Assembly (NCBI GenBank): GCA_002408285.1
Contig: DHRG01000013.1
Span: 4,536-68,535 of the forward strand
Direction: 5' to 3'
DNA from: Peptococcaceae bacterium UBA5318
GTDB lineage: Bacteria; Bacillota; Peptococcia; DRI-13; UBA5318
DNA: 64,000 nucleotides
Below are positions 30,571-36,515 of the stretch, in pieces. Under the pieces are notes generated by a model that ran no database searches, was not told the origin of the DNA, and saw nothing but the letters and a program-made list of their open reading frames with translations. Numbering within the stretch: the first letter of the stretch is position 1; each line of letters opens with the position of its first letter. The position numbers were made by a program, and so were the translations under genes.

Positions 30571-32904
30571 TTATAAAAAATATAACTCTACCTGTTCCAT
30601 CAGCGCGAAGCAGGTCTGCTCCCGGTCAAAAAAGGCCAGATCCACCACAAGTTTATGACTGTTTTGCCGGAGCACCGTCAGCCGGCAATCCACCGGCCCT
30701 TCTTTTTGTCCCTGGGGCCGGAGGCAAAAACGTCCGATGTGCATGGGCAAAGAAGGCTTATGATAGCAGCGGTAGCCCCAAAGCCGGGCCAACTGCAGCC
30801 CGCCGTCCATTAACACCGGAGCCGTAGCCAGGGCCAGATCCCGCTCCCGCGCTTCCTGGGAAGGCCAGTCCAAGCGGCCCCCGCCTCCCCCGGCGTGCAC
30901 GAAATGAAGCTGCTGCACCACTTGAAAGCTGGGTCCGTGGAACAGGTAGTCCCCGTAGATCCGTTCCTCTTCCATTTCCCATTTCATGGCGTCGCCCAGG
31001 GCGCCGCCATGCCCCCCGAGATCCGTCGGCCTCCTTGGGGCGCTCGGGACGGCGTGTTTCCCCAGCACTACTTGCCCGGCATAATAGGCAACGCCTTTTT
31101 GGTCTTCCAGTTGCAGGTGGAGGCGAAGGCCTTGCTCTTTTTCAGCGCGGAAGGCCTTTCCTTTGAGGACCAGCGTGCGGGGGTCATTGTCCAGCTTGTG
31201 GAAGCGCAGACCTTTCAAAACGCGCAGGTCTTCCCCTTGGGAAACGGGAATATCCGGAGACAAGCTTTGTGCCAAGCGGTGAAACCATTCGTTTACCAAG
31301 ACCAGCGGGACGACCCGATGGTCTTCAATCTGGTGGTCCTCCAAAAAAGGGTTGCTCCTGGGGTCCACCATCAGGTGCAGGCGGAACTCTCTTGTTTCCT
31401 GGGCCAGGAAAAAGGGGGCCCCAGACGGGACCGGGCCGATGACGACCTCAACCTCGCGGGGGTTGGCGCCGCAAACCTCCGCGGCAAAAAATTCCGCCCC
31501 CTCCCGCTGCTGGATCAGGGCAACCCCCCGGGAAGCAAAGTGCTTTTCTAAGGCGGCGTCCACCATTCCGCCCGCCCACGGCCCCCAATTCAAGGATTTG
31601 ACCAGCACATTTGCCCTGGTTTTCCGTTGCTGCTGCGCCGCTTTGTTGAGAATTTCGTTGGCCATGGCATAAGCACATTGGCCGCTGTTCCCTTCCCTGG
31701 CGGCTGCGGAAGAAAAACAGGCGATCAGCTTTAAATCGTCGCCCGCCGTCAGGCGCAGCAGGTTTTGGAATCCCTGGACCTTGGTGGAAAAGACCCGCTG
31801 GAATTGGTCATCCCTTTGGTCTTTGATCCGCTTATCAGCCAGAATCCCGGCCCCGTGAATGAGGCCGTGAATCTTGACCCCTTGGGTGCGCAGGGGCAGC
31901 AAAGCCTCTTGCAAAGCCTCCTCCCGGGTGATATCCACGGAAAGATAACCTGCCTCGGACCCGGCTTGCTCAAGCTGCGCGATGGTCCGCCTGATTTCCC
32001 GCGCCGCCAGCAGCGCCCGGACCTTCTTCCTGATTTCCGGCGGCGCCGGGTTTTCGCCAAGGCGGGCGGCCCTTTCTGACAAAAGCCTTATTAACTGCTT
32101 TTCATCTTCCGCTCCTGAAAGGCCCTCCTCTTCTGCGGTCAAGGACGACCTTCCCAACAAGATGAAACGCAGGGGTTTCTTGTGCGCCAAGGCCAGTAAG
32201 GAAGCGGCGGTAACGCCCCGGGCTCCGCCGGACACCAGCACCGTGTCATAGGGAGCCAAGGCGTCGCAGGGCGCCAGCCCTTCTTCCTCTTCCCCCTCCG
32301 ACTTGCTTTCTTGCAAGCCCACGGCAATCCTGACGCCATCGGCCAAATACCCCACCTCTTTTTCCAGGCCGCCGCACCAAAGCTCGTTACAGATGCAGTC
32401 GGCCCTGGCTTCCAGGGACAAGGCGGAAGCGAGATCCAGGGCCTTGACTAAAGCCTGGGGCCATTCGCGGGCCGCCGTTTTGGCCAGGGCCGCCATCCCG
32501 GCCGACCAAACCTGGTTCCCCGGCCGGCCCGACAGGCCGAAGTCCCCGCCGGTACTTTGCACGGTGAGAAAGAAACCACCCTCCTGTTCCATGGTTGCGG
32601 CGACATTTCTTGCCGTCCTAAAGGCCTCCAGGTTCAGCTCCATGGCCTGGGCCACAGGGTTTTGCTCCTCTGCCAGCCCTAAATAAACGACATTGCGGGC
32701 GCCTGAAGGGATGCAGTGGCTGAGAATAGCTTCGACTCCCCTGCCGCGCAATTTGTCCGCCACCTTTTCCGCCAGGCCGCCAGGGTCGCTGTTGATATAA
32801 ACCGGATACTCTTTCAGGCTCGGCACTGCAAAGCCGGGAGCGGGAGCGGGAAAGGCCCGGACATGAAAGCCTCTTAACCGCTTCCCGCCCTCCATGGCTT
32901 CCAT
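30571..32904 (-). CDS. PKS ketoreductase plus PKS-type dehydratase didomain protein (equivalent to the C-terminal part of PfaA)
   Basis: The KR shows VLVSGGARGVTAASLLALA, the catalytic region SSAAAREGNSGQCAYAMANE and an N-terminal structural sub-domain. The DH shows FLEDHQIEDHRVVPLVL (HxxxDxxxxP), YLFHGPSFQ and LMDGGLQL. Confidence 0.8.
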   Translation of the reverse strand: MEAMEGGKRLRGFHVRAFPAPAPGFAVPSLKEYPVYINSDPGGLAEKVADKLRGRGVEAILSHCIPSGARNVVYLGLAEEQNPVAQAMELNLEAFRTARNVAATMEQEGGFFLTVQSTGGDFGLSGRPGNQVWSAGMAALAKTAAREWPQALVKALDLASALSLEARADCICNELWCGGLEKEVGYLADGVRIAVGLQESKSEGEEEEGLAPCDALAPYDTVLVSGGARGVTAASLLALAHKKPLRFILLGRSSLTAEEEGLSGAEDEKQLIRLLSERAARLGENPAPPEIRKKVRALLAAREIRRTIAQLEQAGSEAGYLSVDITREEALQEALLPLRTQGVKIHGLIHGAGILADKRIKDQRDDQFQRVFSTKVQGFQNLLRLTAGDDLKLIACFSSAAAREGNSGQCAYAMANEILNKAAQQQRKTRANVLVKSLNWGPWAGGMVDAALEKHFASRGVALIQQREGAEFFAAEVCGANPREVEVVIGPVPSGAPFFLAQETREFRLHLMVDPRSNPFLEDHQIEDHRVVPLVLVNEWFHRLAQSLSPDIPVSQGEDLRVLKGLRFHKLDNDPRTLVLKGKAFRAEKEQGLRLHLQLEDQKGVAYYAGQVVLGKHAVPSAPRRPTDLGGHGGALGDAMKWEMEEERIYGDYLFHGPSFQVVQQLHFVHAGGGGGRLDWPSQEARERDLALATAPVLMDGGLQLARLWGYRCYHKPSLPMHIGRFCLRPQGQKEGPVDCRLTVLRQNSHKLVVDLAFFDREQTCFALMEQVELYFL

Positions 32905-32915
32905 TTCTTCAATTT

Positions 32916-35900: not shown

Positions 35901-36515
35901 AATGCGCCCAGCCACCACACTTCCCAACAGCCCGGGGAAAGAGCTTTCCCGCCAGGGCAGGTGGTTGCCGGCAATCCGGTCGCAAACCTCCTCTATCTTC
36001 TGCTCCGGCAGCCCGCTTTCTCTCAGCCCTTGCGCCCAAAGGGACCTTTGCACACTGCTGCCCAAATGGATGGCAAGCTCCGTACCGGAAGTCACGCCCA
36101 GGATAACGCTGGTTTTTTCTTTGTTCAGGTTTTTAAATTGGAAGCGGCAAGCCTCCTCCAGAACTCTTTGGGCCACGACTAAGGCTAAAAGCTGGCAAGT
36201 ATCCGTCGCCTTTAAATTATGGGGCGGAATGGCAAACTCCAGGGGATCAAAAACTATGTCCGGGAGAAAGGCGCCCCTTTTGCAATAGGTTTTATCGGGA
36301 GCCGCGGGATCAGGATGATAGTAATCGTCTATCAGCCAGTGAGAGCAGGGAACATCCGTGATGAGGTCCTTTCCTTCAAGAATGTTTTTCCAGCAAGCTC
36401 CCCGGTTGTCTCCTCCGGGCAATAAAGCGCTGATCCCCACAACGGCGATGGGTTGACAAGGTTCCACCAGGATTTTCACCTTCCTCCGGTCGGTTATGCC
36501 TGATTGGTCCAGCAC
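32916..36515 (-). CDS. PfaA-like type I PKS/FAS: ketosynthase - acyltransferase - single acyl carrier protein
   Basis: The KS shows TIVDAACGSSL, EAHGTGT and IGHTKAAAG, plus the Pfa-type segment SHWLIDDYYHPDPAAPDKTYCKRGAFLP. The AT shows FPGQGSQY, LAGHSYGE and TAFHS. The ACP shows [16 protein letters not shown]. Confidence 0.9.
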   Translation of the reverse strand: MLDQSGITDRRKVKILVEPCQPIAVVGISALLPGGDNRGACWKNILEGKDLITDVPCSHWLIDDYYHPDPAAPDKTYCKRGAFLPDIVFDPLEFAIPPHNLKATDTCQLLALVVAQRVLEEACRFQFKNLNKEKTSVILGVTSGTELAIHLGSSVQRSLWAQGLRESGLPEQKIEEVCDRIAGNHLPWRESSFPGLLGSVVAGRIANHFDLQGTNTIVDAACGSSLCAVSMAILELQSGKADLVITGGADTQNDIFMYLCFSNILALSPTGDCRPFSRQADGTVLGEGIAMVALKRLADAEKDGDPIYAVITGLGSSSDGRAKSIYAPRAEGQVLAVRRAYEAAGYGPDTVELVEAHGTGTRAGDAAEFAGLARVFPGEGKKQWCALGSIKSQIGHTKAAAGAVGLFKAVMALHHQVLPATIKVDQPNPNLKIEDSPFYLNTQSRPWIRGLDHPRRAAVSAFGFGGSNFHVTLEEYRKPGNRPAKLRTMPYELFLLAGRSPEELLRQGQGLLEEISACPSGSWTPSVRNGWHVALAKQAQAQYDPERAYRLALVSSNLDDLAAKIKQSLERIGTKPEQALDLSAGIYYATKRMTGKIAFLFPGQGSQYLNMGRDLALHFDCAREVWDRAAELAAGPQGEKLHDFVFPRPAFDGETRKLQEDCLTDTRIAQPAIGAMSLSLLAVLKQLGLQADLLAGHSYGEITALAAAGVFSEDAMLHVAKKRGELMQETSGNKGAMTSVFLPPAEAEALLKRLNLSVVVANINSPEQVVVSGPEEEIRQLEAACKQQGLPFIRLPVSTAFHSALVEPSVKPFRQYLQGVAFQKSAVPVYANLAAKPYPEEPESMKDLLARQIANPVRFAELIGRMAGEGVGLFIEVGPGGVLTGLAKQCLTGQDVKAVATDGKGQHGILSLLQAVACLSVLGVKLDYSCLWSGYGSLQDPRDEKKPAYPVKINGANYGKPYPQKNKSIDRQVSTMNQKERQQREQTGREHTREQEVSSVSLDLIQKQMTEAHLAFQKALTESHQAYLGFSEKLLAALTGQRPAAIPEKDGPAGEEQGLWQQAEHSLLELAHADQAGLIAGKSAAPPLPAEIPGYSGQEPVAGRGSGDGGKPSLSVRETVLEVVSEKTGYPVELLDLDSDLEAGLGIDSIKRVEILATVQERLAESLDAEPPDPDNSLPLALHTLKEIIAFLEQRVKKN

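Follow-up and report, generated by a model that had tools for sequence, protein, structure and literature searches.

Introduction

Canonical synthases of polyunsaturated fatty acids (PUFAs) are encoded by pfaABCDE clusters, and their PfaA subunit carries 4–9 tandem acyl carrier protein (ACP) domains. Other components of these clusters are a ketosynthase (KS) paired with a chain-length factor (KS-CLF), FabA-type dehydratase (DH) domains, the acyltransferase (AT) PfaB, the enoyl reductase (ER) PfaD and the phosphopantetheinyl transferase (PPTase) PfaE. The subject here is a reduced relative of such clusters in a 64,000-nucleotide stretch of Peptococcaceae bacterium UBA5318 (contig DHRG01000013.1, positions 4,536 to 68,535), called the window throughout, in which two adjacent open reading frames, ORF1 and ORF2, resemble consecutive parts of PfaA. 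The window contains a PfaD; within it a KS-CLF, FabA domains, a PfaB-type AT and an intact PfaE are all missing.

Several features are shared with the myxobacterial-type PUFA synthase (pfa1-3, Type L; PMC3098273). These include the PfaD ER, a PfaA-type domain order of KS-AT-ACP-KR-DH (KR, ketoreductase), and a module for loading lysophosphatidate, in which a DH of the polyketide synthase (PKS) type is followed by a 1-acylglycerol-3-phosphate acyltransferase (AGPAT). The window differs from the myxobacterial type in lacking a KS-CLF, a second AT and a FabA-type DH/isomerase, and in having one ACP and a split pfaA; moreover, six phospholipid, ether-lipid and transport genes lie between its pfaA and the DH-AGPAT gene.

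Reduced and split pfa clusters have been described before. Type J consists of PfaD and PfaA only, while Types D and H have pfaA divided into pfaA1 and pfaA2 (PMC3098273), and pfaBC genes without KS-CLF occur in hybrid clusters of Microcystis and Ottowia (PMC13291983). With such precedents for a single KS, for doing without CLF or KS-CLF and for dividing pfaA between its ACPs and the KR, an arrangement that is split and free of KS-CLF is less unusual than a preliminary description of this DNA had supposed. Unlike the window, however, these clusters are tied to PKS or nonribosomal peptide synthetase lines or have no known context, and none has been described together with Ger, CdsA, Pss, Psd or a radical S-adenosylmethionine (radical-SAM) enzyme. 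The types of Shulse and Allen (PMC3098273) were compared with the window cluster and none of those listed matches it; Pelotomaculum lay outside that survey. What appears to be new is the union in one island of a single-KS, FabA-less Pfa-type synthase with Ger, CdsA, Pss, Psd, a radical-SAM enzyme and an ATP-binding cassette (ABC) exporter. The restriction of that island to a Pelotomaculum-type lineage and a conserved slippery junction in pfaA likewise appear to be new. Nothing was found in the literature on Pfa combined with Ger, nor on frameshifting or a slippery junction in pfaA.

A PfaA-type subunit in two reading frames

The two genes and the junction between them are located as follows.

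32916..36515, minus strand: pfaA1-like gene, KS-AT-ACP, 1199 aa (Pfam and NCBIfam, PfaA-type homologues)
30571..32904, minus strand: pfaA2-like gene, KR and PKS-type DH, 777 aa (Pfam and NCBIfam)
32920..32928, minus strand: A9 run, coding strand GTA AAA AAA AAC TAG, candidate slippage site (sequence)

Coordinates and Pfam assignments agree with the preliminary description in placing a 1199-aa KS-AT-ACP protein and a 777-aa KR-DH protein 11 nt apart. The TAG of ORF1 occupies 32918-32916 and the ATG of ORF2 lies at 32904, in a different frame. Pfam assigns residues 22-424 of ORF1 to the KS, 427-504 to the KS C-terminal extension, 599-903 to an AT, which is of the malonyl type, and 1119-1169 to a single PP-binding domain; in ORF2 a KR (221-444) is followed by a PKS-type DH at about 500-777. 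Catalytic motifs are intact in both proteins (DAACGSS, HGTGT, IGHTK, GHSYGE and TAFHS, together with GGARGV, YAMAN and the DH His, which are located in ORF2).

The tandem ACPs of canonical PfaA are lacking. Besides the single PP-binding domain, a six-frame scan of the 64 kb for G-x-D-S-[ILVM] returned one motif, GLGIDSIKRVEIL at about 33080, as expected from the earlier claim of only one ACP. Cryptic further ACPs in the 1199-aa protein, a possibility raised in the same description, are ruled out by Pfam, the motif scan and tblastn; the conserved 1000-1030 segment (QMTEAHLAFQKAL...), considered as an extra ACP, is a linker element without the Ser motif. A single ACP is nevertheless not the oddity it had been taken for, since about 20 of roughly 80 related loci have one among the matches listed.

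Neither protein alone reaches the cutoff of the PfaA model TIGR02813 (1010.1 bits): ORF1 scores 957.6 bits over model positions 8-954 and ORF2 297.3 bits over positions 1877-2567. A conceptual −1 fusion of the two passes it with 1249.6 bits, and the KS-AT-ACP-KR-DH order of the pair is colinear with the model. The best homologues of ORF1 are of the PfaA type, the nearest named one being that of Pelotomaculum terephthalicicum JT (78% identity). ORF1 and ORF2 are probably two halves of a PfaA-type subunit, and the synthase a reduced one of PUFA-synthase descent. Sequencing error was considered as the cause of the split and ruled out, because assemblies from NCBI, ENA and Logan, made independently, show the identical protein and junction, and relatives too have the same A9 and the same frame.

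A slippery run at the junction

The stop codon of ORF1 stands directly after the A9 run, which is the sole homopolymer of at least 9 nt in the window. A −1 shift at this point, or the addition of one A, would lead by way of ...VKKK-LEIEE-MEAMEGG... into the KR reading frame and produce a fusion of 1981 aa; the predicted trans-frame peptide over the junction is ...VKKKLEIEEMEAMEGGK..., also written ...FLEQRVKKKLEIEEMEAMEGGK. Ribosomal and transcriptional slippage is well documented on the motifs A_AAA_AAA and A_AAA_AAG and on runs of more than seven A (PMC3711429, PMC5009743). Recoding on such runs is known from the A_AAA_AAG of E. coli dnaX, where it takes the form of −1 programmed ribosomal frameshifting, and from the A9 of Thermus, where it is transcriptional (PMC5009743, PMC3711429). 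The pfaA junction shares with dnaX-type recoding the A7-A10 slippery motifs, and one locus would likewise provide a short and a long product. It differs in that the host gene encodes a lipid megasynthase, and in being a candidate site predicted by sequence comparison.

About 125 related loci, referred to by L numbers, were annotated with the window's own domains. In each of the 11 distinct split pfaA pairs examined the KR reading frame is the −1 frame, and a run of A7-A10 falls exactly at the junction in 9 of the 11 distinct split loci. The nine loci with the run are the window, P. terephthalicicum JT and L006; two Paenibacillus genomes and two Paenibacillaceae-like metagenome contigs; Alkalihalobacillus sp. 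TS-13; and Mucilaginibacter of the Bacteroidota. Between them they represent Pelotomaculum-type bacteria, Paenibacillaceae, Bacillaceae and Bacteroidota. What would be expected in sequence of −1 frameshifting or slippage is thus found: a slippery run at the boundary, an ORF2 in the −1 frame, and recurrence in divergent homologues.

The Paenibacillus sp. P8 locus (L016) is likewise a single-KS set from the Bacillota, with KS-AT, ACP, KR and PfaD, and has an A AAA AAG junction with the KR frame at −1, as in the rest of the split family. Unlike the window, it has kept a FabA-type double DH and has a methyltransferase gene upstream, with no AGPAT and no phospholipid or ether-lipid genes.

Of about 48 fused forms, 47 lack the run. 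The exception among the matches listed is L002, a fused relative of 2011 aa that reads ...AKKK-LAIEE... through an A9, which an additional base ahead of it keeps in frame. The same pair of products could therefore arise from fused and from split alleles, with the ratio inverted. The A9 of L002 lies at 13586-13594, and one A added there by slippage would yield a truncated KS-AT-ACP ending ...KKKTSN.

The split could also be a plain division into two subunits, the A-run being the scar of an old 1-nt deletion, a reinitiation spacer or the source of a lysine-rich tail, with no fusion protein made. A start codon is available between the run and the KR motif in the window, L004, L020 and L087, the stop of ORF1 is close enough to the start of ORF2 for coupling to be possible, and pfaA1 and pfaA2 have been annotated as separate genes (PMC3098273). 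This account does not readily accommodate the way in which the run is conserved. The C-terminus xKK[N/K/H/D] is shared by about 25 more split proteins, in which the residue before KK is variable and the tails after it are unconserved, so that the constraint appears to lie on the nucleotides and not on the protein. The Lys codons at the run are AAA in 17 of 19 cases, where the background frequency is about 58%, and flanking codons are also part of the run; it is kept at the nucleotide level between lineages that are 42-65% identical in protein. Initiation at ORF2 is a further difficulty for two plain subunits. In four loci (L016, L056, L088 and L089) the conserved KR motif [L]xR[F/Y]xVxxxPxPxxGF precedes the first ATG, GTG or TTG in frame, which in L056 is codon 65 of the KR frame. 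ORF2 of the window has no Shine-Dalgarno sequence; values for the neighbouring genes are −6 to −12 kcal/mol. An independent pair of subunits is accordingly regarded as rather doubtful, though with a substantial chance of being correct.

Recoding at the junction is, on balance, the probable state across the family, because the A-run is conserved, ORF2 lies in the −1 frame and KR residues precede any start codon in four loci. For the window locus itself the chances are about even that recoding yields a full-length PfaA besides the short KS-AT-ACP, because translation of ORF2 could instead begin at the ATG that lies 11 nt beyond the stop. The preliminary description, which spoke of separate proteins, was right that two ORFs are present, and it was probably incomplete in passing over the A-run and the −1 frame of the KR ORF. 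The abutment of the A9 on the stop codon did not figure in it, and neither did the missing FabA-type dehydratases or the PPTase deletion described below.

Missing parts and descent of the cluster

Three further genes of the window have counterparts in pfa clusters.

17120..19603, minus strand: PKS-type DH-like domain fused to AGPAT, 827 aa (Pfam PS-DH and Acyltransferase, the latter at 556-691)
16669..17046, minus strand: PfaE-like PPTase of the Sfp type, a remnant (about residues 59-185 missing through an internal deletion that keeps the frame)
15063..16709, minus strand: PfaD-family enoyl reductase (TIGR02814, 617 bits against a cutoff of 449)

The usual layout among the relatives is PfaD-[KS-AT-ACPn-KR-DH]-[KS-CLF-(AT)-FabA-FabA-DH-AGPAT], and a PfaC-type gene stands directly downstream of pfaA in roughly 70 related loci among the matches listed. 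A search of genome contigs provided a broad sample of PfaA, with no Pelotomaculum among the matches listed. The closest Bacillota relatives outside Pelotomaculum (L020, L057 and L087-L089) have the usual KS-CLF-FabA-FabA layout.

None of this front part of PfaC was found in the window. Searches by tblastn with its own domains (E<=10) gave no second copy of the KS, AT, ACP or linker in the 64 kb, and a second KS or a CLF was found neither there nor in the flanks of L002 and L090. When a Bacillota PfaC-type protein was cut into KS-CLF, AT-like, FabA-DH and AGPAT parts for use as probes, the matches in the window were to the single KS and the AGPAT only. For a FabA-type dehydratase/isomerase (HFxxDPxxPG) the window contains no Pfam domain and no tblastn match to the FabA regions of L087 and L016, and tblastn likewise found no PfaB-type or second AT in the 64 kb. 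The statement in the preliminary description that neither a KS-CLF nor a PfaB-type AT is encoded in this stretch therefore stands.

Over its AGPAT half, the DH-AGPAT protein shares 49% identity with the C-terminal end of a PfaC-like protein from the Bacillota (L087), and as a whole it aligns solely to the region of PfaC after the second FabA domain. By this alignment it is the remnant C-terminus of a PfaC-like subunit, and the KS-CLF, the second AT and both FabA DHs would therefore have been lost here. The phospholipid, ether-lipid and transport genes are, on the same comparison, gains in place of the lost PfaC parts. The motifs HCPTYTLP, FHGP and DGLLQ are present in the DH-AGPAT protein, whose probable start is at 19564, giving 814 aa; a PDB sequence search with it returned no match. 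Compared by tblastn with the 257-aa PPTase of L090, the remnant matched at residues 2-58 and 186-256 only; an undeleted gene, also for 257 aa, stands between AGPAT and PfaD in L090, L092 and L093.

Conceivably the system is a canonical PUFA synthase whose KS-CLF/FabA-DH subunit (PfaC) and PPTase act in trans from genes in another part of the genome. The view taken here is limited to 64 kb, close Bacillota relatives use KS-CLF-FabA-FabA, and with the local PPTase deleted the cluster depends on an outside source for at least that function. A PfaC acting from a distance would nonetheless depart from the roughly 70 loci in which its gene directly follows pfaA, and neither the window nor the flanks of L002 and L090 gave any KS, CLF or FabA signal. 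Furthermore, at least three lineages have kept the DH-AGPAT tail of PfaC in the cluster while its front part is missing, which looks like deletion and not relocation. A complete synthase completed in trans is thus considered improbable.

The same cluster is present in L002 (88% identity), in L090, L092 and L093 (73-82%) and in Pelotomaculum genomes, making three or four lineages. A first metagenome scan with the single DH-AGPAT protein found no relatives; L090, L092 and L093 were found by a metagenome scan with a DH-AGPAT alignment, the rest of its matches being mostly ordinary PfaC C-termini. Pairwise ratios of non-synonymous to synonymous substitution (dN/dS) are 0.17-0.31 for every gene, apart from 0.42 for the DH part, at dS of 0.2-0.8; individual values are 0.20-0.22 for pfaA1, 0.26 for pfaA2, 0.21-0.24 for the Ger-like gene and 0.24 for PfaD. 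These ratios and the same arrangement in relatives indicate that the reduced system is maintained by selection. The opposite view, that the cluster is a decaying remnant whose product is no longer made, could draw on the loss of the KS-CLF, second AT and FabA DHs, and in the window genome of the PPTase core too, on a dN/dS reaching 0.42 in the DH part, and on the interruption of pfaA at a homopolymer. That interruption, however, is conserved in lineages with complete clusters, and apart from the PPTase every gene has its full length and unimpaired catalytic motifs. Several lineages also share the gene order, and in L090 and L093 the PPTase is undamaged. Given these points and the range of dN/dS over the dS covered, decay has little to recommend it as an explanation.

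Other relatives are organised differently. An even more reduced arrangement is seen in L006 (65% identity; 115-8192), where PfaD and KS-AT-ACP are accompanied by a KR protein of 488 aa that lacks a DH; the contig ends upstream, and downstream of the KR lie a GAF/Rce1-like protein and then rpmG-secE-nusG. The DH-AGPAT module also exists outside Pfa clusters, as L115 (6188-12700) encodes a stand-alone 823-aa DH-like-AGPAT protein with no pfa genes nearby. Its neighbours there are an acyltransferase of the PlsC type and a phospholipase of the NTE/patatin type, the latter bearing two cyclic-nucleotide (cNMP)-binding domains.

Neighbouring lipid genes

ORF1 and ORF2 head a GC-rich lipid cluster of about 21 kb, counted as 11 genes. 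In addition to the pfa-related genes listed above it comprises, or adjoins, the following.

28341..30515, plus strand: ABC exporter (transmembrane domain and ATPase) with a C-terminal cyclic-nucleotide-binding domain, divergent (Pfam)
27130..27972, minus strand: CDP-diacylglycerol synthase, CdsA family (Pfam CTP_transf_1, E=3e-44)
22877..27136, minus strand: Ger/PlsA-like ether-lipid enzyme, 1419 aa, two BcrAD_BadFG and DUF2229, 'BBD' (Pfam, NCBIfam)
21144..22877, minus strand: B12-binding radical-SAM enzyme of a rare family (Pfam and NCBIfam matches all below family cutoffs)
20540..21151, minus strand: CDP-alcohol phosphatidyltransferase, PssA-like (Pfam CDP-OH_P_transf)
19551..20483, minus strand: phosphatidylserine decarboxylase, Psd (Pfam PS_Dcarbxylase, E=1e-53)
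12238..15032, minus strand: CHASE2 adenylate/guanylate cyclase and metallo-beta-lactamase (MBL)-fold hydrolase (Pfam, NCBIfam)

The position of the exporter gene is the same in L001, L002 and L090, and the CdsA gene is kept in L002 and L090. Ger stands for glycerol ester reductase, an enzyme type characterised by turning the sn-1 ester into an alkyl ether under anoxic conditions. The BBD architecture is conserved in Ger enzymes of alkyl-ether lipid producers (PMC13159169, PMC13274423). Its components, two BcrAD_BadFG activation domains and a DUF2229 reduction domain, are recognised in the 1419-aa protein, which shares the BBD pattern with the Ger/PlsA enzymes of those studies and whose activity is a predicted one. 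No HGD-D domains were detected in it, and an IS110 transposase match at its N-terminus, weak and below cutoff, was treated as spurious. Unlike the window gene, known Ger genes have not been reported beside a Pfa-type synthase.

About 26 homologues of the radical-SAM enzyme were found, the closest named being that of Pelotomaculum sp. PtaB.Bin104, while a PDB sequence search gave remote matches to B12-radical-SAM enzymes only (OxsB, AprD4). Its nearest homologue outside the lineage (48% identity) is part of an unrelated glycosyltransferase cluster.

The CHASE2 cyclase and the MBL-fold hydrolase occur only in the window lineage; in L090 two AraC genes stand directly after PfaD. The MBL-fold hydrolase beside PfaD has weak similarity to cyclic-nucleotide phosphodiesterase. 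Together with the cNMP domain of the exporter, the cyclase and the hydrolase hint at cyclic-nucleotide control of lipid export. Two AraC/cupin paralogues, about 53% identical to each other, are encoded at 6253-8358 on the minus strand; the pair is kept directly after PfaD in L090 (75-80% identity), and both are candidate regulators of the cluster. Between them and the lipid cluster lie genes for two large predicted surface proteins (8638-12043, minus strand), one with FecR, Listeria-Bacteroides repeat and Shr-like domains and the other with NHL repeats and a copper amine oxidase N-terminal domain; L090 has none.

Genomic setting

From 8 to 36.5 kb (8000-36600) the lipid genes occupy an island whose GC content is about 58%, flanked by DNA of about 45% GC. 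A tRNA-Ser gene (38895-38984) lies roughly 2 kb from the island. The flanks differ among relatives, with LigD upstream in L002 and flavodoxin and toxin-antitoxin genes in L004. The contrast in GC content, the nearby tRNA-Ser and the differing upstream flanks suggest that the island was acquired horizontally.

The window also holds dnaA (51298-52665, minus strand), dnaN, recF, gyrB, gyrA and serS. In the region 48800-54000, dnaA, dnaN, recF, gyrB and gyrA are found to one side, mnmE/mnmG to the opposite side, and there is an intergenic stretch of 36% GC; the cumulative GC skew has its minimum at about 50-52 kb. The window is placed next to the chromosomal origin because of this gene set, serS, the tRNA-Ser and the switch in GC skew.

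Proposed pathway

The synthase is proposed to act as an iterative type-I fatty-acid synthase, in which KS, AT, ACP, KR and two PKS-type DHs would cooperate with the trans-acting ER PfaD. A −1 ribosomal frameshift, or one A added during transcription, would provide a share of 1981-aa KS-AT-ACP-KR-DH beside the short KS-AT-ACP. Full reductive cycles would lead to an acyl-ACP that is saturated, at most trans-unsaturated or hydroxylated, and not to a cis-PUFA, because the FabA-type isomerase has been lost. The AGPAT domain would then transfer the chain from the synthase directly to lysophosphatidate, and CdsA, the CDP-alcohol phosphatidyltransferase and Psd would convert the acylated product into phosphatidylethanolamine. 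Reduction of the sn-1 ester to an ether is assigned to the Ger-like enzyme, modification of a chain to the B12-radical-SAM enzyme and movement of the finished lipid to the cNMP-gated exporter. Judged by gene content, the product would most likely be a saturated chain fed into ether-linked phosphatidylethanolamine. The preliminary description had anticipated an unusual membrane-lipid tail in place of a PUFA, and the missing FabA-type domains and the phospholipid and ether-lipid context fit that suggestion.

It had also been proposed that the enzyme may extend a premade acyl primer by only a few cycles; the housekeeping fatty-acid synthase would be the source of such a primer. One KS and one ACP would suit such limited work, and in PUFA synthases the late elongation steps and the length of the chain are attributed to KS-CLF (PMC13291983). 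The cluster, however, offers no identifiable loading domain, acyl-ACP/CoA ligase or starter AT, and the PfaA-type KS of known systems is generally understood to start from malonyl/acetyl units. Primer extension seems unlikely on these grounds, although the evidence would fit de novo synthesis and primer extension alike.

The fuller proposal is that programmed recoding at the A-run sets the ratio of short to full-length product across a Pfa-like clade of Bacillota and Bacteroidota, and that the Pelotomaculum module is a horizontally acquired, self-contained one making a radical-SAM-modified ether phosphatidylethanolamine. As a whole it is put forward tentatively, with somewhat less than an even chance of holding in all its parts. 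Several observations weigh against the proposed pathway and its recoding step. The only candidate for a stimulatory RNA structure is a modest hairpin 18 nt downstream of the run (z-score −2.0), weak support that is not relied on, and no conserved stimulatory element was found at the junction. In the window the ATG 11 nt past the stop would allow reinitiation to take the place of recoding; an A-run is lacking at two split loci of high GC content, L018 and L019; and the split loci are not phylogenetically independent of one another. The view of KS-CLF, FabA and PPTase genes covers 64 kb here and ±10 kb in relatives, so that one of them may lie elsewhere in the genome. With its PPTase deleted and dN/dS of 0.2-0.4, which is somewhat relaxed, the window copy could be decaying. 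The roles given to the radical-SAM enzyme and the ABC exporter are guesses.

Significance

Pfa-like 'secondary lipid' synthases are widespread, and their products are mostly not known. A compact system of 11 genes bears on what a single-KS Pfa enzyme can make and on how anaerobic Bacillota build ether lipids. If recoding does occur at the pfaA junction, it would be the first described in a megasynthase of the PKS or fatty-acid synthase type, as far as the searched literature shows. Split genes of this kind are currently annotated as two separate genes or as a pseudogene, whereas the slippery junction suggests that the subunit stoichiometry of a megasynthase may be set by recoding, as in dnaX.

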